From a virus: a stretch of DNA of 37,798 nucleotides. Below are positions 1 through 29,023 of the stretch, in pieces. The notes under the pieces were generated by a model. It ran no database searches and was not told the DNA's origin. It saw only the letters and a list, made by a program, of their open reading frames with translations. Location: the UHGV virus genome UHGV-1315295; one strand, written 5' to 3'. The stretch's first letter is position 1; every line of letters starts with the position of its first letter. Made by a program: the position numbers and the translations under genes.

Positions 1-175
1 TAAAGCAGAGCAAATTGAAATAGTAAATTACATCAATAATCAAGTAGAAGTGACTGAGTCATCTATTGATCTGATTAAAAATAAAATAGAAAAACTAAAA
101 GAATACAAAACCACCCTGATCAATAGCGCCGTGACAGGAAAAATAAAAATCACCCCAGAAATGGTTGAGCAATAG
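1..175 (+). CDS. hsdS: Type I restriction-modification specificity subunit HsdS, C-terminal fragment (5' end outside window)
   Basis: Frame starting at nt 2 reads ...IDLIKNKIEKLKEYKTTLINSAVTGKIKITPEMVEQ then TAG at 173-175; resembles the conserved C-terminal region of HsdS; sits directly upstream of hsdR on the same strand. Confidence 0.55.
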   Translation, partial: KAEQIEIVNYINNQVEVTESSIDLIKNKIEKLKEYKTTLINSAVTGKIKITPEMVEQ

Positions 176-184
176 GACGCGAAT

Positions 185-1348
185 ATGTTCACGGTAAATC
201 ATCAAACCAACAGGATTAGTCCTGTTAGGACAAAGAAGTTCAGTGAGTTGGGCTTTACTGAGCGCAAGCATCTTCAGGAGTGGTTGGCACACGAACCTTC
301 CGCACTCGGTGAAGAGTTGTTGATTATTCAAAAAGAGTTCGATGGCTTTGATGACACCCGTGAACGCTTAGATTTACTGGCACTGGATAAAGATGGCAAC
401 TTGGTCATTATTGAAAACAATCTGGACGACAGTGGCCGCGATGTGGTGTGGCAGGCGCTTAAATATGCCTCCTACTGCGCAAGTTTAACCAAAGCGCAAA
501 TCGTTGAAATTTACCAGCAGTACTTAGACCGCTATGAGCCTGTAACAGGAGAGGTTGACTTGTTTAATACCCCTGCAAGTGCCTCTGCTAGAATATGTGA
601 GTTTTTGGATGCGCCCGATCTCGATGAGTTAAAGCTCAACCTGGGTAACAGCCAGCGCATTATGTTAGTTGCGGCAAACTTTCGCAAAGAAGTGACCAGC
701 ACCGCGCTGTGGTTATTGGGTCAAGGCATTAGCATTGCCTGCTTCAAAATCACGCCTTATTCACTGGGTGAACAGCTACTGATTAATATTGACCAGATCA
801 TTCCAACGCCAGAAGCGAAAGAGTTGATGATCGGCATTAATGCCAAGGAAGCGGAAGAAAAAACCACCGAAGTGGTACTAAAAAACCGCCATACCGTGCG
901 TCGCGAGTACTGGGAGCGTGCCTTAGAGGCGTTTCAGAAAAGCTCTTGCCAACTCTATAACAACATTAGCCCAAGCAAAGATCATTGGTTATCAGCAGGC
1001 TCAGGGCTAAGTGGATGTCCGTATAACCTGATATTTCTGCAAAAAGAGCTTCGAGTAGAGCTTTGGATCAGCCGTGGGGTTACCGAAGAGAATAAATACC
1101 TTTTTGATTTGTTGAGTCAGTCCAAACAAGACATTGAGCATACTTTTGGTGCAGAACTTGAGTGGATGAGGCTGGATGAGAAGAAATCTTGCCGTATCCA
1201 GTTTTCGACCAAAGCTGACGGGTTTAACAAAGAGACTTGGCCCCAAGCGGTTGCGTGGCACTTAGAGCAGATGACAAAGTTAGAAAAAGCCTTAAAAGGA
1301 CCGCTGCAAAAAGCGGCTGAGGCAATGAAACAGAAGAATTTTGATTAA
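185..1348 (+). CDS. Hypothetical 387-aa protein embedded between hsdS and hsdR; N-terminal restriction-endonuclease-like (PD-(D/E)xK-type) motif, C-terminal region unknown
   Basis: ORF track; AGGA 7 nt upstream of ATG 185; motif ELLIIQKEFDGFDDTRERLDLLALDKDGNLVIIENN followed by VVWQALKYASYCA resembles NucS-type nuclease cores but with E-N-N where E-x-K is expected; no Walker A so not PrrC-like. Confidence 0.5.
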   Translation: MFTVNHQTNRISPVRTKKFSELGFTERKHLQEWLAHEPSALGEELLIIQKEFDGFDDTRERLDLLALDKDGNLVIIENNLDDSGRDVVWQALKYASYCASLTKAQIVEIYQQYLDRYEPVTGEVDLFNTPASASARICEFLDAPDLDELKLNLGNSQRIMLVAANFRKEVTSTALWLLGQGISIACFKITPYSLGEQLLINIDQIIPTPEAKELMIGINAKEAEEKTTEVVLKNRHTVRREYWERALEAFQKSSCQLYNNISPSKDHWLSAGSGLSGCPYNLIFLQKELRVELWISRGVTEENKYLFDLLSQSKQDIEHTFGAELEWMRLDEKKSCRIQFSTKADGFNKETWPQAVAWHLEQMTKLEKALKGPLQKAAEAMKQKNFD

Positions 1349-1362
1349 GGGAACTTACAATT

Positions 1363-4300
1363 ATGGTCAGTCAAACCAATGAACAAGCATTAGAGTCGGC
1401 CATTGAGAAATGTCTGGCTGGGATCAGTACTGAAGAGCTCAAAGAGGGGCTGAGTCAGCAGTCACTGGGTGCTGGATACTTCATTGGTGCTGCTAGTGAC
1501 TTTAATATGCAATATGCCATTGATGAACGTTTTTTCTGGCAATTTCTGCAAAAGACACAAGAAGTAGAGTTGGCCAAACTGCAAAAGAACAACCCCTCAG
1601 ATTGGCAACGTAAGTTACTCGAACGATTTGACCGACTGATTAAGAAGCATGGCATTCTTCATTTACTTAAGAAAGGGCTAAGCGTAGACGATGCTCATTT
1701 CAATTTGCTCTATCCAGCCCCTTTGGCAAGTAGTAGTGAGAAGGTAAAGCAAAACTTTGCAGATAACGTGTTTAGTTGTACTCGCCAAGTGCGCTATTCC
1801 ATGGTAAATCCCCTACAAGAAATCGACATGGTATTGTTTATCAACGGAATACCCTTGATAACGCTGGAGTTGAAGAACGCATGGACCGGGCAAACAGCAC
1901 GTTATCACGGCCAAAAGCAGTATCGAGATGATCGGGATGCAACTCAGCCATTGCTGACCTTTGGCCGCTGCCTAGTGCATATGGCGGTCGATACCGACGA
2001 AGTGTATATGACCACCAAGTTATCAGGTAGCAGTACATTCTTCTTGCCGTTCAATAAAGGTCACAATCTTGGACAAGGCAACCCGCCGAATCCATCTGGC
2101 CATAAAACGGCATACCTATGGCAAGAAGTATTCACTAAAGACAGCTTGGCGAATATTATTCAGCATTTTGTGCGTCTGGATGGGTCAAGCAAAGATCCAT
2201 TACCCAAGCGAACCCTGTTCTTTCCTCGATACCATCAATTGGATGTGGTGAGAAAATTAGTAGACCATGCCGCCCAGCACGGTGTCGGTCAGACTTACTT
2301 AATTCAACACTCAGCCGGTTCAGGTAAGTCTAACTCGATTACCTGGGCAGCTTATCAGCTAATTGAAACCTATCCTGCTTCGTCTGATGTGGCAGGCGGA
2401 AAAAGCTTGGAGCAGCCGTTGTTTGACTCTGTGATTGTGGTCACCGATAGACGCCTATTGGACAAGCAGCTGCGGGATAACATTAAAGAGTTTTCTGAAG
2501 TAAAGAACATTATTGCCCCAGCGAATAAGTCTTCTGAGCTTAAGCAGGCGCTGGAGAATGGCAAAAAGATTATTATAACGACGATTCAGAAATTCCCGTT
2601 CATTATTGATGGTATCGCCGATCTTAGTGACAAGCGCTTTGCAGTGATCATCGATGAAGCACACAGCTCACAGTCTGGTTCGGCGCATGACAATATGAAC
2701 CGAGCGATGGGCAAGTCTGAAGTCGAAGAGGCAGAAGATGCTCAGGATAAAATCCTTCAGGCGATGAGATCGCGTAAGATGCGCGGGAATGCGTCGTACC
2801 TGGCATTTACAGCGACACCAAAAAACAGCACTTTGGAGAAATTTGGTCAACGCCAAGAAGATGGCTCTTACAAGCCGTTTCACTTGTATTCGATGAAACA
2901 AGCCATTGAAGAAGGCTTCATCTTGGATGTGCTGGCAAATTATACGACGTACAAAAGTTATTATGAGATTGAGAAATCAATTGCTGATAACCCTGAGTTT
3001 GATACCAAAAAGGCGCAGAAAAAACTCAGAGCTTATGTAGAACGAAGCCAGCAAACAATTGATATCAAGGCAGAGATTATGCTGGAGCATTTTGTTCCGC
3101 ATGTCGTGAATACGAAAAAGCTCAAAGGTAAAGGTAAAGGAATGGTGGTCACTCAAAATATTGAGGCGGCCATTCGATACTACAAAGCGATAAGGCGAAT
3201 ACTTGAGGAGCAAGGAAACCCGTTTAAAGTTGCCATTGCTTTCTCAGGAACCAAAGAAGTTGATGGTATTGAATATACCGAAGCAGATATTAATGGTTTT
3301 GCCGAGTCAGATACCAAAGATATGTTTGATACCGATGAGTATCGACTTTTAGTGGTTGCTAACAAGTATCTGACTGGGTTTGACCAGCCTAAGCTTTGCG
3401 CCATGTATGTAGATAAGAAGCTCGCCAGTGTCTTGTGTGTTCAGGCGCTATCTAGGCTCAATCGCAGTGCACCTAAGCTAGGGAAGAAAACAGAAGACTT
3501 GTTTATCCTGGATTTTTTCAACTCGGTTGAAGATATTCAATCAGCATTCGATCCTTTCTATACAGCAACGTCATTGTCCCAAGCTACAGATATAAACGTA
3601 CTGCACGAGTTGAAAGATGAAATGGACGATGTCGGTGTGTACGAGTGGTATGAAGTTGAAGACTTTGTGACGCGTTATTTCAAGAATGAAGACGCCCAAA
3701 CACTCAGTCCAATCATTGATATTGCCGCAGCGCGGTTTGACCATGAACTAGATCTTGAAGCTGAAGCTAAAGTGGACTTTAAGATTAAAGCCAAACAGTT
3801 CGTTAAAATCTATGGGCAGATGGCTTCTATCATGCCTTATGAAATGGTCAGCTGGGAAAAACTGTTTTGGTTCCTGAAGTTTTTAATACCGAAATTGAAA
3901 GTGGAAGATCCCGATGCTAATGCTATTGATGAGCTTCTCGATTCTGTCGATCTGAGTTCATACGGTTTGCAACGTGTGAAGCTTAACCACAGCATTAAAC
4001 TTAGTGACCAAGAAGCGGAGCTTGATCCTCAAAATCCGAACCCACGTGGGGTGCATGGCGGTGAAAAAGAAACTGACCCGCTGGATGAAATCATTCGCAC
4101 ATTTAATGAGCGATGGTTCCAGGGCTGGAGTGCCACACCTGAAGAGCAAAAGGTTAAGTTCGTGAACATCGCTGAAAGTATCCGCAATCACCCTGACTTC
4201 GAATCGAAATACAAAAACAACCCAGATCCCCATAATCGAAATTTGGCCTTCGAAAAAATGCTCAAGGAAATCATGCTGCAACGCCGTAAAGATGAACTTG

Positions 4301-4380
4301 AGCTCTACAAGTTGTTCGCAGGAGATTCAGCATTTAAAGCCTCGTGGACGCAAAGTATGCAACGAATGGTGGGTAGGTAG
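1363..4380 (+). CDS. hsdR: Type I restriction enzyme R subunit (HsdR), DEAH-box helicase/nuclease
   Basis: 1005 aa; N-terminal nuclease motif [18 protein letters not shown]; Walker A GSGKSNS; DEAH box IIDEAHSS; size and order typical of HsdR. Confidence 0.9.
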
Positions 4381-4394
4381 AAAGGAGTGATGGT

Positions 4395-5080
<686 letters not shown>

Positions 5081-5260
5081 CCACTTCATCTACACTCGCG
5101 GCATTGGAAGCAAAGATATGGTCGTCTGGCACCTGATGCACATTGATAAGGCTATCAACCACACGCTGGAGAAGTTCTTTCCACCAGCCTGAACACAATG
5201 ATTGTGCGCCTTATAGCGCCCATTAAGATAGATAAGTACTTACCAATAAGGAGAAAACAC

Positions 5261-5536
5261 ATGAAGACTTTGGTTCGCATTTCATCTAGTACCGACTATG
5301 ACGTTTACCCGTTGTTCATGATCAAGTGCGACGGGCTGAACGATGAAGAAATTCAAGCGGCAATTGAACGCAATCTAGTTGAATACACAGGAATGGATGC
5401 GGATTCTATTTATATCGATGATGACGGTGTTTGTTGGCACAACGGTAGCTGCTGGTACGTCGACGACACAATGCTGGTAAGCGATGAAGACGCGGCCCAT
5501 CTTGAGCGCATTTTGGGTATCAGCACTTTTGAGTGA
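5261..5536 (+). CDS. Hypothetical small acidic protein (91 aa)
   Basis: ATG 5261 preceded by AGGAG; ORF track frame; start context AGGAGAAAACACATG shared with other genes in the window. Confidence 0.45.
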   Translation: MKTLVRISSSTDYDVYPLFMIKCDGLNDEEIQAAIERNLVEYTGMDADSIYIDDDGVCWHNGSCWYVDDTMLVSDEDAAHLERILGISTFE

Positions 5537-5751
5537 TATTTACAGCAAAAATATATAAGTTAGCATTTACCTATCATTAAAATTTTATTAGATATCACGT
5601 TACTTATTACCTCGATAGCCTTTGTGCTCGACTGCATCTTCACAGGGGCAATCCGTAAAGCGCTGGCGCCTGTTAATGATGTGATGATCAATGCGCTGGC
5701 CGTAGTACTGGTCTTCGACTCAGCATTAGGCGTTTTCAAAGGAGTCGTGGC

Positions 5752-6087
5752 ATGAAGAAAACAGCCCTGGTACTGGCGCTGCTCACTCTCCCCGTCTTTG
5801 CGGACACACATGTCTATGAGTGCGAAATGTTTGTGGTCGAAGCGAAAAACGGCCTGATCCGCAACGTCGTCAAAGCTAATTACGGCGCGATGGTTGTGGA
5901 CCGCGGCGAACAGTTTTATGTGGTACGCGATAATCGTGTCCTGTCTTCCCCGTTTCTCACTAAACGTAACGGCGAACTATCTGGCGTAGGTAAAGATAGG
6001 TTCGTTTACAACAAATCGGGTGATGTATACGGCGTTCACGCGAAGAACGACAGCTACCTTTTCGATGACTGCAAGGAGATTAGTTGA
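5752..6087 (+). CDS. Hypothetical secreted protein (predicted N-terminal signal peptide)
   Basis: MKKTALVLALLTLPVFA-DTH: charged N-terminus, hydrophobic core and A-x-A-like cleavage region; GGAG RBS. Confidence 0.5.
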   Translation: MKKTALVLALLTLPVFADTHVYECEMFVVEAKNGLIRNVVKANYGAMVVDRGEQFYVVRDNRVLSSPFLTKRNGELSGVGKDRFVYNKSGDVYGVHAKNDSYLFDDCKEIS

Positions 6088-6299
6088 TGGCGGTTACACT
6101 GACAGGTCTGGAAATCGAAAAAACAAGCGGCTACTGGCGTGCCAAAGGGTTCAAGCAGTCCGGCGTACTGGAACGACTGGAACGTGAAGATGGGTATATT
6201 GTTCACCAGCGACGTGAATGGCGCATGTACGATCCGGAAACAGGTAAGCTCGCAACGAAGGCCGGGACACTCTGGGGTCTGCTGAAGAAAATCCACTGA
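6084..6299 (+). CDS. Hypothetical protein (71 aa)
   Basis: ORF track; start overlaps the upstream stop, suggesting translational coupling with 5752-6087. Confidence 0.4.
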   Translation: MMAVTLTGLEIEKTSGYWRAKGFKQSGVLERLEREDGYIVHQRREWRMYDPETGKLATKAGTLWGLLKKIH

Positions 6300-6308
6300 T
6301 AACACTAT

Positions 6309-6946
6309 CCACTGCGGTGAGTAGCCAGCTCACCGCGTGTGAATCCGGCTCATAACCACTGTAGCGAGTAGAACACCCTTCAGGTATGCACCCCAACCAC
6401 TGTAGTGAGTAGAACACCATTCGGGTATGCACCCCAACCACTGTAGTGAGCAACCCCCCTGCCACGATATCAACTATCCACTGTAGTGAGTAAATTGGTG
6501 ATTATCGGGGTCGCTATACACTGTAGTGAGTAAACAGGCGTTCACTGACTACAAACAACCACTATAGAGAGTGATGGAATGCTCCCTCCAGCGGATATCC
6601 ACTATGGAGAGTAAATCTTCGCTGTTTTAAACGGATATCCACTCACTACAGTGGATAGAGGTCAAGTCAGCCAATTCTGCTCTTCACAGTGGATAGTCAA
6701 CAATGAGGAGAGCGACGATAACCGCTGTAGAGAGTAGACTTAACAGAGATACCCAGTGACCGCTAACCTCTCAGCCCTTGTTTTATCTATGTTTGCAACC
6801 ACTAACATTTACTTCGCGATTTGTGCGCACTGCCTACAGTGGTTATTCTTCGGTTTCTTTTACTCACTACAGTGGATATTGCATTTCCGATAAACAAAAA
6901 GGCTCACTACAGTAGATAGTGAGCCTTTTTACTCTCTACAGTGGTT
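6309..6946. repeat. Iteron array downstream of repA (incA-like copy-control locus): about 15 copies of CCACTGTAGTGAGTA-type repeat in both orientations
   Basis: Copies at 6309-6323, 6356-6370, 6397-6411, 6438-6452, 6478-6492, 6518-6532, 6559-6573, 6599-6613, 6722-6736 (forward) and 6641-6654, 6682-6696, 6834-6846, 6861-6878, 6903-6918, 6931-6946 (reverse); includes a 41-bp tandem duplication 6356-6396/6397-6437. Confidence 0.8.
6896..6930. terminator. Bidirectional hairpin terminator at the repA 3' end, incorporating an iteron
   Basis: AAAAA-AGGCTCACTA-cagtag-TAGTGAGCCT-TTTTT: 10-bp perfect stem with A-run and T-run on either side. Confidence 0.5.
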
Positions 6947-6949
6947 GGG

Positions 6950-8005
6950 CTATTTGCGAGCCTTTGCCTTGCGCAGCTCTTCGAGAATCGCCAGTTCTTC
7001 CTTGCTCAACATGACCATTTCCCCGTCTTTTTCTTCAGGGGCAACATCGATAATGTCCTCCGGATCATCACCTGGCAAGATATCTTCTGGCTCTTCAGGC
7101 GTAGCCATAGATGGCGGCAGTGCCGAACGTAACTTCGGCCGTCTATAGTGGATGACGAAGTAGACCGAGCTGCCGCGTTTCACTTCAGTGTAATCGAGAT
7201 AGCCGATCTCTCGCAGCTGCTCCATCGCCTTCCTGACTGTCGCATTCTGGGTAATGGTGCGGCTGGTTAAGTTAAGTCTGGCGCGTAAGCGAGCCAATGA
7301 GATTGGCGCCGGGTCTGGTGGCAAACTTTCAATGAAGGTGTAGAGCGCCTGCGCGGATTCTTTTCTGGAGAGTTCGTTGATGGCCCGAAGTTGCAAAAGC
7401 ACCTTTTTGTCGAACTGGTAAAGTTCGAAAATCTTAGGATCGGCCTTCAGTTCGACCGTGTCATTCTTGGTACTGTACTTTGCCGTCTGCACAAGGTGCG
7501 TAACGTAATACTCTTCAGAGCCTTTGCTGCGGAATGAGATGGTGTTTGTGGCGATACGACTTAGAGAGCTGTCCAGGCGCTTACGTAACTTCGCGGACGA
7601 TCTGGCTGTTGGTATGCCACAAAGTCTGACGAACTCGACGAACGGCAACGTGACGGTGTCACCAACAACCTTGTGCTTGGCGAACGCGTGGATGATGCCC
7701 ACCCATGTTTTGAAATCGTTATCCATATCAAGACGAAGACCAGCAATCCTTATATCCTCGTACCCTTCGGCTTTGGCCAGAGACAGCTGTTTGAGTTCAG
7801 CGGAGGCGTCCATAGAGACCATTTGCCCCTTTCTACCCCTGGATGTCGATTTCAGCGTCGGAACGAAGAGACCAAGACGCATCAGAGCAACAGGTTGAAC
7901 TGTGTTGTTGGTGTTAGGAACTAACGTAACAACTTCGCCGGTCTTTTTGTCTGTTTCGGAAAATGCTTCGCTTATCGCAATGTTTTTATTGTCGTTTACG
8001 CTCAT
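6950..8005 (-). CDS. repA: Replication initiator RepA (P1/IncY-type iteron-binding initiator)
   Basis: 351 aa; blocks [64 protein letters not shown] match my recollection of P1 RepA; flanked on both sides by iterons. Confidence 0.8.
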
Positions 8006-8048
8006 TCCAAATGTCTCTTTTTATTCGACGGCTTGGGTGCCTTTACTG

Positions 8049-8168
8049 ATTACAGTGGATAGTAGCACCCATCACAGTGGTTATCCTACCGCCTACAGCG
8101 GTTTTTCTACTCTCCATAGTGGTTGATTTACTCTCTATAGTGGTTGTTATTCTCACTATAGTGGATAT
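8049..8168. repeat. Iteron cluster 1 upstream of repA (origin/incC-like), 6 copies
   Basis: ACAGTGGATAG, CACAGTGGTTAT, CTACAGCGGTTTT, CTCCATAGTGGTTG, CTCTATAGTGGTTG, CACTATAGTGGATA; same family as the downstream iterons. Confidence 0.75.
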
Positions 8169-8214
8169 CGATAACCTCTAAAGCCATGTGGCACAACGGT
8201 TTGCAGGGGCCGGG

Positions 8215-8273
8215 GATCTCTTTGGGTCTTTGTGGTTCTCTTTGGTTCTAACAGGGATCTGAATTACTGGATC
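8215..8273. promoter_or_regulatory. GATC cluster 1 (3 Dam sites) adjacent to iteron cluster 1
   Basis: GATC at 8215, 8256, 8270 within GGGATCTC / GGGATCTG / GGATCGAG heptamer-like units. Confidence 0.4.
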
Positions 8274-8446
8274 GAGCCTGTGTATAAAAATCAGATAATT
8301 ACAAAATCAGGCATCACTCCCCTTCTGGGGATAATGTGTGATCGAAATAAACACGCCGCAACGCAAAATTTACAATATTTCCAAGAATATCAGCCATCTG
8401 CCGCAGAAAAACAGGCTCGGAGTTATCCAGTTAAAACATTGTCTCC

Positions 8447-8551
8447 TACTCACTACAGTGGATACCGACTACTCTCCAGAGAGGTTGTTTTGCTCTTCAT
8501 AGCGGTTATTATGCTCTCTACAGTGGTTATTTTGCTCCCTATAGTGGATAG
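8447..8551. repeat. Iteron cluster 2 (5 copies), a second origin-like module
   Basis: TACTCACTACAGTGGATA, CTCTTCATAGCGGTTAT, CTCTCTACAGTGGTTAT, CTCCCTATAGTGGATAG plus one degenerate copy. Confidence 0.7.
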
Positions 8552-8590
8552 TAACCCCTTCTCAAGCCAGTAACCGCAAGCGCTGGAGAC

Positions 8591-8648
8591 GATCGGGGAT
8601 CTCTTTTGATCTTCTGTAGGATCTCTCTGGGGATCTAAATATTGGATC
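8591..8648. promoter_or_regulatory. GATC cluster 2: six GATC sites in 58 bp
   Basis: GATC at 8591, 8598, 8608, 8620, 8632, 8645; the flank resembles the 8205-8280 segment (duplicated module). Confidence 0.5.
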
Positions 8649-8747
8649 GGACCTGTGAATAAAGTGAATAAGTAAACAGGCATTTGCAAACTCCGGTGCG
8701 CCTTATCCGTTATCGTTGCCCCGGACAAAATTATTTGAACAAGAATT

Positions 8748-9392
8748 ATGGATCTTAAACGCACGCGCTGGGTTCGCCGTCTTGAAGATGGCTCCTACAC
8801 CATTGAATCAAACACTAGTCTGAACAAACTGAAGTTGCTCTGCGACCTTTGCGGCATTGCTTCGAAATGCCCGATTAACGAAACCCGGCTTAAACTCCAC
8901 GACGCCGGTGCGCATTTCCACCTAAACAGCTGCATACGTTACGTGCCACTACTAGCATTTCGTAAACCGATCATCGGATTGGATGCTCCCTACTTCAACA
9001 CACTGCGCTCTGGTGTCACTTGGCGAGATCGTGTCGAACCTGGCAAACTCGTTTGTCTGGTTGAAGCTGATACCGGAAATATCATCCGGTTCGGGAGAGT
9101 TGATAAGGTCTACTCAGGCCCGGTGGATGAAATGCTGCGGAAACACAGCCGATTTAACCATCTCTGCATGGGCGGAGAGAAGATTGAGAAGGTTGGCGAA
9201 GTAATTCGCAAATCTTACGGACACTTTCTGAATGATAACAGCCTTCTGACAGCCATTTACATTCGCCATGTCGATCGGGAGTTCGACACGGAGTATCACA
9301 GTGTTGAAGAGTTGAATCTTGTAGACCCTCGTCCAAAAGCTGGGGTAATAGACATCAGCAGAGCGCGTCAGAAGCCCTCAGAGACGTTTTAA
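8748..9392 (+). CDS. Hypothetical protein (214 aa)
   Basis: ORF track; first gene after the origin-like region. Confidence 0.5.
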   Translation: MDLKRTRWVRRLEDGSYTIESNTSLNKLKLLCDLCGIASKCPINETRLKLHDAGAHFHLNSCIRYVPLLAFRKPIIGLDAPYFNTLRSGVTWRDRVEPGKLVCLVEADTGNIIRFGRVDKVYSGPVDEMLRKHSRFNHLCMGGEKIEKVGEVIRKSYGHFLNDNSLLTAIYIRHVDREFDTEYHSVEELNLVDPRPKAGVIDISRARQKPSETF

Positions 9393-9788
9393 AGGCAAAC
9401 TCATGCTTTTTACCGGGCATAAAATATGGTGTCTTAGAAAGACACTGAGAGCTTTAGGGATTAATGCATGAGTGAATTTTATTCAAGAGCAGAAACTGTG
9501 GCCGACGGATGCGTTTGAAGACGACGCACGCAAACGCCGTAGATGTCATCTCACAACTTCACCGTCCGTTCTCCTTTTTCATTTCTTGTCATCAGTAAAT
9601 GACTGCTCTCATAAAATTGCTTGTGACGTTTAGAAATCGTTGCTGCCCTATCTGATAGGTATTTACTTACTTATTTTTTTGTCATTATCATGTGCCTTTA
9701 TATTCTTTTGTGTTCCGTGTTGTCTGGGTTGTATGCCTCTTATGCACGCTTAGAATTTGTATCAAAATAACCACAAAGGAAAAGACAC

Positions 9789-10874
9789 ATGACATTGCCA
9801 TACGGGGTAATATCAGATCCCCATTATCATCGTTGGGATGCTTTTGCGACAACAAACGCTGACGGGCTTAACTCTCGGCTGGAGATCCAACTGGACGCTA
9901 CGAAGGAGGCGGCCAAAGCGATGAAAGCTGCTGGCTGTAAGCACATGCTGGTAGCTGGTGATACCTTCCATGTTCGCGGTGCTATATCACCTTCCGTTCT
10001 GCATTTCGTGACCGAAACTTACGAGTGGATCATCAAAGAGTTGGGTCTCAAGGTGGTAATGCTGGCTGGCAACCACGACCTCGAAACCAACAATTCCGTA
10101 TACAGCGCCAATGCAGCAGCCTCTCTGCGCTCAATCGGTGTGGAAATCGTCTGCGGCAAACGTCCTCATTCCATCAAAATGGGCGACGTAACCGTCCATC
10201 TGATTAGCTGGCGTAATAACCACGCAGAACTTATCAGCGATCTCAAAACGCTGCGTTCCGGGCTGGATGGTGACAACCATGATGTTGTTGTACATACCTC
10301 AATCAACAAAGCGATCCCCACCATGCCCGATGTCGGCATCGACGCACAGGAACTGAAAGATATCGGCTTCCGTTTATTGTTGTCCGGGCACTACCACAAC
10401 CACAAAGAAGTGCTGCCTGGAGTGGTAAGTATCGGGGCGCTGACACACCAGAATTGGGGGGATGTTGGTTCACTGGCCGGCTTCATGATCGTCAAACCGG
10501 ACGGCTCATTCACTCACCACGAAACCTCGGCACCTAAATTCGTGAACCTTGAGGACGATGTAGATGACGATCAGATTCGCGGCAACTACGTGCGCTTCCG
10601 TGCCGTTGTTGAGAGCGATGAAGAAGGCATCAAACTTCAGAACGTCCTGAAAACAATGGGCGCGAAGGGTGTCGTCTGCAACTTCATTCGCAAGGCATCG
10701 ATGATGGAAGGCGCTGCCAGTACTGCGGAAACCAGCAAAATTGACAGCCTGGGCGAGTCCGTTGCGGCGTACTGCAAGATCGTTCACGACACTGACGGTG
10801 GCTTCGACCTGAGCAAGCTGGACATACTGTGTCAGGAGATCTTGACCGAAGCAGAGAGTGCGGAGGCTGTGTGA
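9789..10874 (+). CDS. sbcD: SbcD/Mre11-family metallophosphoesterase nuclease
   Basis: Motifs DPHYH, GDTFH, GNHD, GHYH typical of calcineurin-like phosphoesterase nucleases; immediately upstream of an SbcC/Rad50-like ATPase. Confidence 0.75.
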   Translation: MTLPYGVISDPHYHRWDAFATTNADGLNSRLEIQLDATKEAAKAMKAAGCKHMLVAGDTFHVRGAISPSVLHFVTETYEWIIKELGLKVVMLAGNHDLETNNSVYSANAAASLRSIGVEIVCGKRPHSIKMGDVTVHLISWRNNHAELISDLKTLRSGLDGDNHDVVVHTSINKAIPTMPDVGIDAQELKDIGFRLLLSGHYHNHKEVLPGVVSIGALTHQNWGDVGSLAGFMIVKPDGSFTHHETSAPKFVNLEDDVDDDQIRGNYVRFRAVVESDEEGIKLQNVLKTMGAKGVVCNFIRKASMMEGAASTAETSKIDSLGESVAAYCKIVHDTDGGFDLSKLDILCQEILTEAESAEAV

Positions 10875-10915
10875 GGCAACGTTATTATGGGAGCTTTCGA
10901 GAGTTTGCCATCGTG

Positions 10916-11107
10916 ATGAAAAAACTTCAAAAAGGCCAGACGGTTATGTTTCACAAGCCATACCCTTCAGGAGGAAATCCCGTAGCGTTTTATCTTGGAA
11001 GGCTAACCAGAAAAGGCTTATTGAATCGCAGATCCTTCCCCGCGCATACGGAGTTCAGATTGAAAGATGGTCAAAAGTTAACACACGATATCAGAGGTGT
11101 TATATGA
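10916..11107 (+). CDS. Possible small protein (63 aa) in the sbcD-sbcC gap, stop overlapping the sbcC start
   Basis: ATG 10916 in frame with track ORF 10829-11107; TGA 11105-11107 overlaps ATG 11104; weak RBS. Confidence 0.25.
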   Translation: MKKLQKGQTVMFHKPYPSGGNPVAFYLGRLTRKGLLNRRSFPAHTEFRLKDGQKLTHDIRGVI

Positions 11108-23465: not shown

Positions 23466-23607
23466 GTATTTACCTACTATAATAAATCAGGTATCTTATA
23501 AATCGTCAGGATGACGAAGTACCGGTTAGGTACGGTTCCAGGATGGAACGCCAAAAGGCGGCTGGCCAAGCCAGCCGCAACTCTTTCTGACACTGAATGG
23601 AATCCAC

Positions 23608-24108
23608 ATGGCCCGTCAAACGTCTTTCACTTCTTTCAATAAACGTCCCCGTTCAATTCGCCAGGTGCTGACCGAGCTGTTTAGTGGTCGTGTTTCCGCA
23701 CGCCTTGCGGAACTGGAAGAACGAGTGTTTGAACTGGAGAAGCGCATTAATGCGCAAGCTACCGCCATAGCTAATCTGGGCACGACAGTAGGCATGGAGA
23801 AGGTGCGTAATAGCGTCGCTTCTCGTGTGTTGCGTGAAACCCGGACACACAAGGACAGTTCTCATGGAAAATTTTCAACGAAATCGACTGAAGCCAATGG
23901 CCTACGGAGTGATTTTGGCAACTCTGGCAGCGATTACCGTACCAGCCGGTCAGAGCCTTTTGATGCCGGGCACAGCTACTTCCACTGCCACCACAGCCTT
24001 GCAGATGACACCCCTGCCCGAACGACCTCCTGTCTCTCTGGATGGGATGCTGATGGACACGATTCCAGCTCGACCTGCGACTCCGGATCTTCCTTCTGCT
24101 GTGACTGA
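23608..24108 (+). CDS. Hypothetical protein; N-terminal coiled-coil-like part plausible, C-terminal S/C/H-rich part questionable
   Basis: ORF track; overlaps an alternative-frame ORF over 23865-24108. Confidence 0.3.
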   Translation: MARQTSFTSFNKRPRSIRQVLTELFSGRVSARLAELEERVFELEKRINAQATAIANLGTTVGMEKVRNSVASRVLRETRTHKDSSHGKFSTKSTEANGLRSDFGNSGSDYRTSRSEPFDAGHSYFHCHHSLADDTPARTTSCLSGWDADGHDSSSTCDSGSSFCCD

Positions 24109-24121
24109 GGCTATTGTATGA
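23865..24121 (+). CDS. Hypothetical Pro/Thr-rich protein with N-terminal hydrophobic segment (frame overlapping 23608-24108)
   Basis: ATG 23865 with AAGGA RBS 9 nt upstream; stop overlaps ATG 24118 (ATGA). Confidence 0.3.
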
Positions 24122-24306
24122 AATGGAACTTCCAGAAATTCACCTTGATGATTGTTGGCTTTACCGTTTTTTTGTTTAGCGGCTGGATCATGAATCTGGT
24201 GAAACTTGTGAACGATGGCGATCTCCAGTCTCATGCCGGAGTGACACTTGCGCGTGTCGTGGGCATTTTCGTTGTTCCGGTAGGCGGCATCCTCGGGTTC
24301 TTTTGA
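24118..24306 (+). CDS. Small membrane protein (62 aa, two hydrophobic segments)
   Basis: ORF track; hydrophobic stretches LMIVGFTVFLFSGWIM and VVGIFVVPVGGILGFF. Confidence 0.4.
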   Translation: MKWNFQKFTLMIVGFTVFLFSGWIMNLVKLVNDGDLQSHAGVTLARVVGIFVVPVGGILGFF

Positions 24307-24374
24307 TGCTGAATGCTTTTCTGCATTGTTAAAACAAATTGTTTAGACAAATGATTAATGAGAGTTAACAACAA

Positions 24375-24396
24375 GGGCCGCTGACGGCCCTTTTGT
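24375..24396 (+). terminator. Hairpin with U-tract (terminator or attenuator) 17 nt upstream of the Rha-family gene
   Basis: GGGCCG-ctga-CGGCCC followed by TTTTGT. Confidence 0.5.
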
Positions 24397-28487: not shown

Positions 28488-28723
28488 ATGATCTGCTTGT
28501 CGAGCGAGTCTCCGCTTTTGTTAAGTCCCCGCTGAATAATCCCCTCACCCGCGGTGAGCAGATGGAACTGGCAAGGTGGTTTCTGCGTATCCATGAGCAG
28601 ATGGAAGTTTTTAAACAGTTGCCGGATCTGCCCATTACAGACGGCCAAATTCAGTGTGCCACTTCAGTACGGTCGACGATGACAACGACGCAAACCTGCT
28701 TTTCGTCAAATCCGAAATCATAA
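28484..28723 (+). CDS. Hypothetical small protein (79 aa); possibly the 5' part of a frameshifted gene
   Basis: ATGA overlap with the upstream stop; C-terminal residues look like out-of-frame read-through. Confidence 0.3.
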   Translation: MNDLLVERVSAFVKSPLNNPLTRGEQMELARWFLRIHEQMEVFKQLPDLPITDGQIQCATSVRSTMTTTQTCFSSNPKS

Positions 28724-28769
28724 AGTTGCGCAGGGAGAGAGAGAAATCGACGCAGAGCAGGCCCGCAAT

Positions 28770-28985
28770 ATGTGGGACGAGGCAGAAAACGCTGATGACG
28801 TAAAAGAAAGTTGCTGCTGTTTCGGTGTCGGTAACGAACTGCTGAGTCTGTTTGGTGACGATCCGTGGTATGCCGGTTGGCCAACGGTGCCAAACCCCAG
28901 ATACCAATACCTGGAACGTATTATGTACGCGGTACGTGATGGGCTGAAAGAGCTTCACAATCAGATGAGAGAAGCAATCGGTTAA
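28770..28985 (+). CDS. Hypothetical small protein (71 aa); possibly the 3' part of a frameshifted gene
   Basis: ORF track; its frame is open from 28683 without an ATG. Confidence 0.3.
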   Translation: MWDEAENADDVKESCCCFGVGNELLSLFGDDPWYAGWPTVPNPRYQYLERIMYAVRDGLKELHNQMREAIG

Positions 28986-29023
28986 GTGCTATAGTCAGGC
29001 GCTTTTATATTTATGGAGTGAAT

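Follow-up and report, generated by a model that had tools for sequence, protein, structure and literature searches.

In large phage and bacterial genomes, a long overlap between genes on one strand is usually put down to annotation noise. The closest described layout is that of the two-component spanin genes Rz/Rz1 of phage lambda and LysB/LysC of P2: a longer gene encodes a coiled-coil protein, and its 3′ part contains, in the +1 frame, a shorter gene for a proline-rich exported protein. An ‘overlapped’ class of spanins is also recognized (PMC6139136). Overprinted viral gene pairs such as D/E and A/B/K of phiX174 have both frames conserved and synonymous rates depressed in both, and their overlapping parts are disordered and compositionally biased; most cases are from size-constrained small RNA or ssDNA viruses (PMC8227390). 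Here we describe a pair of genes, A and B, that shares the layout of the former and the coding signatures of the latter. Unlike most overprinted viral pairs, A and B belong to a phage-plasmid of about 100–110 kb with ample non-coding and accessory DNA, and they have no sequence similarity to Rz/Rz1 or LysB/LysC.

The locus was studied in a 37,798-nt stretch of viral DNA, hereafter the window. We found that 1.1 kb around the locus matches 28 complete Escherichia coli genomes at identities of up to 99.9%, being plasmid-borne in all of them, and matches Salmonella phage SSU5 at 90%. These matches identify the window as an SSU5-like phage-plasmid; the SSU5/pHCM2 group of phage-plasmids is common in clinical Enterobacteriaceae (PMC7969092). 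The locus sits in the replication/early region, where the gene order is repA, thymidylate synthase, dihydrofolate reductase, dam, rnhA, A-B-C and rha, and its copy in SSU5 occupies SSU5 positions 80054–80746. In many relatives (L004–L007, L081 and L083–L085) two further genes come after A-B-C, one TerB-like and labelled P1 TciA-like in its annotation, the other a DUF3927 gene; in the window, rha lies directly 3′ of C in their place. The near-identical reference plasmid NZ_CP100983.1 (L080) carries dense copies and fragments of IS1, IS21, IS3, IS6 and IS66 in the counterpart of window positions of about 1–11000 and, further along, a truncated sbcD, a truncated thyA and the trimethoprim-resistance gene dfrA51, all as read on the plasmid record. 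The features of the A-B-C region are:

23469–23497, + strand: promoter-like pair, with a −35-like TTTACC at 23469–23474, a 17-nt spacer and a −10-like TATCTT at 23492–23497
23505–23591, + strand: structured 5′ leader with four helices, from RNAalifold and a covariance-model alignment of 39 loci
23608–24108, + strand: gene A, 166 aa, a hypothetical protein in the RefSeq and SSU5 (SSU5_091) annotations
23851–23855, + strand: ribosome-binding site (RBS) of gene B, AAGGA, 8 nt upstream of the ATG
23864–24121, + strand: gene B, 85 aa, in frame +1 relative to A, unannotated, with a conserved RBS and ATG
23864–24108, + strand: dual-coding segment of 245 nt, frame 0 being the A tail and frame +1 being B
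24106–24110, + strand: stop codon of A (TGA, 24106–24108) overlapping the RBS of C (GAGG, 24107–24110), read from the sequence
24118–24306, + strand: gene C, 62 aa, annotated as hypothetical (SSU5_092)
24373–24394, + strand: putative terminator-like hairpin 3′ of C (AAGGGCC GCTGAC GGCCCTT, then TT), read from the sequence

The original prediction, drawn from the letters of the window, had placed ORFs at 23608–24108 (166 aa) and at 24118–24306 (62 aa), and both are exact. It had also proposed a second-frame ORF with an RBS, running from 23865 to 24121; the ORF, its RBS and its end were all borne out, but the ATG is at 23864, within a frame that is open from a GTG at 23825 to 24121. As had been noticed, the stop of B overlaps the start of a small protein with two hydrophobic stretches: the TGA of B (24119–24121) and the ATG of C (24118–24120) form an ATGA junction. 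In the RefSeq/GenBank records of the E. coli plasmid, SSU5, Cyrano, PhiR41_1 and pJN2-26, A is annotated, C is annotated where present and B never is. Gene callers forbid long overlaps, so B is missing from every curated record examined. B-frame homologues with identities down to 53% are called as genes in other contigs, where the gene caller took B and left A uncalled and both frames are open.

Protein A consists of a basic head, containing a single long helix (residues 17–83), and an acidic, disordered tail (residues 86–166). AlphaFold2 returned an amphipathic helix at 17–83 and low confidence outside it, with pLDDT below 50 in the tail. The tail has the Ser/Cys/His-rich composition that had been remarked on earlier (S17, D10, G8, T7, H6 and C5 among 81 residues). 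The dN/dS of the head is 0.30. The maximum Kyte-Doolittle hydropathy of A is 0.78 over a 15-residue window, and no window exceeds 1.6. Protein B has a positively charged N-terminus, followed by the one hydrophobic stretch of the hydrophobic N-terminus that had been predicted, a helix at residues 12–26 (maximum hydropathy 2.07), then a Pro/Thr-rich linker and an L-D-G-M-x-x-D-x-I-P motif; an A-x-A-like sequence falls at about residues 24–26. AlphaFold2 placed a helix at residues 3–24 of B at low confidence and left the remainder disordered. The charged N-terminus and hydrophobic helix suggest that B is exported or membrane-anchored. Searches of A, B and C against Pfam, NCBIfam, PADLOC and the PDB gave no significant match, and the only PHROGs matched are of unknown function: phrog_10411 for A over its full length, phrog_15659 for B (E = 4e-14) and phrog_6006 for C. 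The helix of A at about residues 29–74 weakly resembles the SlyX family (PRK00846/PRK02793, PDB 3efg) around its ARLAELE.R heptads, but A scores 15 bits against a cut-off of 90, the PDB match has E = 0.17, and hhalign, with an E. coli SlyX query, gave a probability of 50% over 28 columns. The resemblance is too weak to make A a SlyX homologue and is probably generic coiled-coil likeness.

The original prediction had likened an embedded gene here to those in some phage lysis cassettes, and we compared the pair with the spanins. The architecture agrees: B lies in frame +1 across the 3′ end of A and runs 13 nt past it, as in the ‘overlapped’ spanin class (PMC6139136). The identity does not. A is without the N-terminal membrane helix of an i-spanin, and B is without the lipobox or cysteine of an o-spanin; the B of the window contains no cysteine at all, nor do most of its homologues. 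The A-B locus lies between rnhA and rha and not beside a holin or endolysin gene, and the spanin pair of SSU5 is listed elsewhere, at 28585–29000 (PMC6139136 supplement). We therefore rejected A-B as a spanin or lysis cassette on the missing membrane helix, the missing lipobox cysteine and the separate location of the SSU5 spanins.

To follow the two frames across the family, we fetched 79 related loci and added the most distant member, L081, giving 80 sequences, of which 54 are distinct and intact. In all 54, both A (158–179 aa) and B are open, the third frame holding 5–14 stops in each, and the stop of A lies 13 nt before the stop of B, as it also does in L081; we take the joint openness of the two frames to exceed chance. 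Homologues range down to about 30–40% protein identity, and L081 keeps the A/B arrangement with 29% identity in the A head, 34% in the A tail and 40% in B. For P0041, the protein of the most distant member, no related locus turned up in viral or metagenome contigs, and the locus was recovered through the contig encoding the protein. An exhaustive profile search for A against 1.84 billion representative proteins returned only 20 matches, mostly from the SSU5-like group, the two weakest being unrelated repeat-rich proteins; none of these matches offered an outgroup for dating the overlap. C is equally restricted to the phage-plasmid group. As far as these sequence searches reach, A, B and C are found solely in SSU5-like phage-plasmids.

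The breadth of this distribution bears on whether the overlap is real in the window. A sequencing error or recent drift of frame there, for which only the unusual make-up of the A tail would speak, deserves almost no weight, as over 20 complete E. coli plasmids have the same arrangement at 98–99.9% identity, and phages and plasmids from Salmonella, Klebsiella, Kluyvera, Buttiauxella, Cronobacter and Citrobacter have it too. The related proposal that gene A really ends near 23860 did not hold: no homologue has a stop there. Identity between the window and other lineages was 59, 52, 48 and 34% for the A tail and 58, 51, 49 and 29% for the A head, so that by this measure the tail is conserved to the same degree as the head, and the most distant member still has the tail motif C-x-S-G-W-D/N-x-x-G-x-D...C-D. 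Homologues do carry one continuous ORF, gene A, which had been expected to speak against an embedded gene, yet they carry a conserved ORF B as well.

The start of B is equally stable. Its ATG is invariant in 54/54 intact sequences, and it is preceded in every lineage by a purine-rich RBS 8–10 nt upstream (AAGGA, ATGGAG or CAGGGA across lineages). The frame upstream of this ATG is unconserved, and in one large clade a stop nine codons before the ATG closes it; translation of B would therefore start at 23864. Homologues of B keep M-E/D-N/Q-F-Q at the N-terminus, the hydrophobic helix and L-D-G-M-x-x-D-x-I-P. In the Cronobacter-type loci (L004 and L030–L035) the +1 frame is without a stop over the entire A gene (162 codons) and begins at an ATG 10 nt before the start codon of A, which may be chance; outside that clade the +1 frame is closed 9–24 codons upstream of B's ATG.

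If both frames encode protein, synonymous change should be constrained in both. We compared dS in the overlap with dS in single-coding neighbours from the same 42 genomes, using pairwise estimates. Outside the overlap, rnhA had a dS of 1.12 and the A head one of 0.78, while A codons 63–93 and C had 1.23 each; within it, the value was 0.30 in the A tail and 0.44 in B. Where the residue is conserved, the third position was invariant at 13/18 sites in the A tail and 12/22 in B, versus 3/23 in the A head, 1/19 in C and 12/115 in rnhA (Fisher's test against the pooled controls, 16/157: A tail, 2e-8; B, 5e-6). The four-fold sites of B that are invariant fall on conserved residues of A, namely N, L, R, G, D, C and W and the terminal CCD. 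Coding by A alone predicts that A third positions are free to change, yet they are the slowest in the region. Coding by B alone predicts free third positions in B, yet many of its four-fold sites never change. Both dS and site invariance thus carry evolutionary signatures in the two frames, in agreement with the earlier suggestion that one gene is embedded in another.

Other coding tests were of varying use. Codon-usage scores were 0.008 for the A tail, 0.167 for B and −0.68 for the third frame, against a reference of 0.36 for true in-frame windows (5–95% range 0.13–0.54) and −0.56 and −0.73 for off-frames; B therefore falls within the range of true in-frame windows, and both frames score far above off-frame values. 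An OLGenie-type test, which takes dN/dS in each frame with the other frame held fixed (PMC7531306), gave omega values of 0.94 [0.65–1.33] for A and 0.57 [0.41–0.75] for B. Non-coding controls gave similar values (0.59 for the +1 control and 1.23 for the −1 control), indicating that the dNN/dSN and dNN/dNS ratios are biased by frame here, and we dropped them as a discriminator in favour of absolute synonymous rates and site invariance relative to flanking genes. Random back-translation gave a probability of 0.07–0.17 per lineage that A is open given the protein sequence of B, and of 0.24–0.53 that B is open given that of A. A test of stop-creating synonymous mutations gave P = 0.046 for A and 0.45 for B. 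These open-frame tests are weakly informative for A and uninformative for B.

That only A is a gene, with B a chance open frame arising from the composition of the A tail, would fit the public records, which annotate A and not B, and the ease with which the +1 frame stays open when A is back-translated at random. We consider it very unlikely, given that the synonymous sites of A are the slowest in the region and that the B frame has genome-like codon usage, an RBS and ATG kept across lineages, a charged N-terminus with a hydrophobic helix, conserved motifs and the ATGA junction with C. A less remote alternative is that only B, C and the A head are functional and the A tail is a functionless read-through kept open by the amino-acid composition of B, the synonymous conservation of B then reflecting RNA structure or translation signals. 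Several observations are compatible with this: the A frame would be open by chance in 7–17% of back-translations of B, its stop avoidance reaches only the P value given above, its tail is predicted to be disordered, the codon usage of B is the more genome-like of the two, and frameshift variants without the A tail circulate. RNAalifold also gave z = −4.8 for the overlap. The helices it proposes, however, are short and show next to no covariation, and some lineages break them; constraint at the RNA level may contribute to the conserved synonymous sites and is insufficient for the whole pattern. Furthermore, just over half of the B synonymous sites scored are invariant against about 10% in controls, they map to the A motif C.SGWD..G.D...CCD, which is kept to the most distant member, the dS of B lies well below the 0.78–1.23 of the flanking genes, and the stop of A is fixed in every lineage behind a tail conserved like the head. 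We regard a functionless A tail as improbable, and dual coding as the better account of the overlap.

The same region also yields fused products. Natural one-base indel variants join the A head to the B tail at at least six different positions, in proteins P0021, P0026, P0030, P0031, P0033, P0034, P0039 and P0044 and at loci L023 and L078; one such cluster, P0021, was seen on 80 contigs. Some of these variants may be assembly errors. Otherwise, the natural existence of frameshift variants in which both tails are destroyed indicates that some lineages can do without the module, which would be dispensable in the short term and lost at no immediate cost. A programmed +1 ribosomal frameshift that joins the A head to the B frame, so that the product is a fusion and not two proteins, would account for the presence of A-head/B-tail proteins in databases, and the window has an A/T run (GGAAAATTTTC) at the start of B. 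The run is absent from the L068 lineage (GGATCAATTTC), however, and we found no slippery motif at the start of B common to all lineages. The natural fusions are one-base indels at varied joints, the overlap extends for 245 nt with a frame-0 tail conserved to a fixed stop, and B has conserved start signals of its own. The varied joints and the unconserved A/T run make programmed frameshifting unlikely, and taking the start signals and the frame-0 tail into account we give it very little credence relative to two separately started proteins.

Gene C is less tightly bound to the pair. It encodes two hydrophobic stretches that are predicted membrane helices. The overlap of the B stop with the C start, as ATGA or GTGA, is kept in most lineages, wherever C is present, and suggests translational coupling of B and C; the GAGG is 7 nt upstream of C's ATG, and because the stop of A lies inside this RBS, translation of C probably depends on coupling to the reading frames before it. 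L003/L016/L024, L027–L029 and L081 either have no C or have it replaced. Since A and B always occur together while C is absent or replaced in several lineages, the conserved unit is A plus B, and C, judged from its distribution, is not an obligatory partner. There is a mosaic boundary directly after the stop of B (window 24118–24135): in Klebsiella-type elements C retains its first five codons and is divergent thereafter, and in two other lineages C is missing altogether.

Upstream of A, the rnhA-A spacer is more conserved than the surrounding genes. The promoter-like hexamers and their spacing are conserved in 11 divergent lineages; they match the consensus at 8/12 positions, below the threshold of the scanner, and transcription from them would begin at about 23504, the foot of the leader. 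In the leader, an outer helix pairs 23505–23514 with 23582–23591 and encloses hairpins at 23519–23533, 23535–23549 (with a GGA triloop) and 23558–23578. Pairing holds in 98.9% of cells over 39 loci, versus 33–44% with the partners slid. Compensatory changes affect eight pairs, confined to helices 2 and 4; helices 1 and 3 are invariant, so that it is their conservation that supports them. G-U pairs fit the + strand only, which puts the structure on that strand. The leader is single copy in the window and had no match in Rfam at gathering thresholds, the best sub-threshold match being MicX on the opposite strand (20.9 bits against a threshold of 75). A small ORF over the leader (23511–23642) was rejected as coding, a stop interrupting it in L004. 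Downstream of C, the terminator-like hairpin was not flagged by the scanner because its T-run is short.

The leader shares some features with CsrA/RsmA-regulated leaders and RsmZ-type RNAs, namely two invariant CAGGAUG sequences with GGA at hairpin tips (23509–23511 and 23541–23543) and a third GGA in the RBS of A (23599–23601). These motifs resemble CsrA sites and are candidates only. The Rfam family PrrB_RsmZ matches the leader weakly (15 bits, E = 0.13, threshold 44 bits).

Together, these comparisons leave a locus in which, across the aligned sequences, both ORFs are conserved, synonymous sites are constrained in both frames and start signals are maintained. We consider it likely that 23864–24108 is dual-coding, specifying both the tail of A and an independently started B within a small A-B-C operon, and we infer that both proteins are translated. 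On this model, A would be cytoplasmic, its single long helix followed by a disordered, acidic tail rich in Ser, Cys and His; ribosomes would start independently at the AAGGA/ATG of B (23864) inside the A tail, and B would be made as an 85-residue exported or membrane-anchored protein. A, B and C would form one small operon, bounded by the promoter-like site with its structured leader and by the terminator-like hairpin. Our working guess is that the module is accessory and acts at the envelope, for example in exclusion or membrane modulation, and not in lysis. By analogy with Rz/Rz1, A and B might further be functional partners that form an envelope module with C, for instance for exclusion or membrane remodelling, under a leader RNA possibly responsive to CsrA, a reading that we offer as possible but doubtful. 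If true, it would make A/B a second, unrelated obligately co-encoded pair in a dsDNA phage and would add a new regulatory RNA.

A/B thereby adds a probable new and well-conserved instance of dual coding in a dsDNA phage; arrangements of this kind are known, and the pair is related to none of the examples described. B would supply a missing gene to the annotations of SSU5-like phage-plasmids, and the pair offers a clean test, taken from nature, of methods for detecting overlapping genes. For this phage-plasmid group, the locus points to a small conserved three-protein module with a leader RNA, whose functions are now open to testing.
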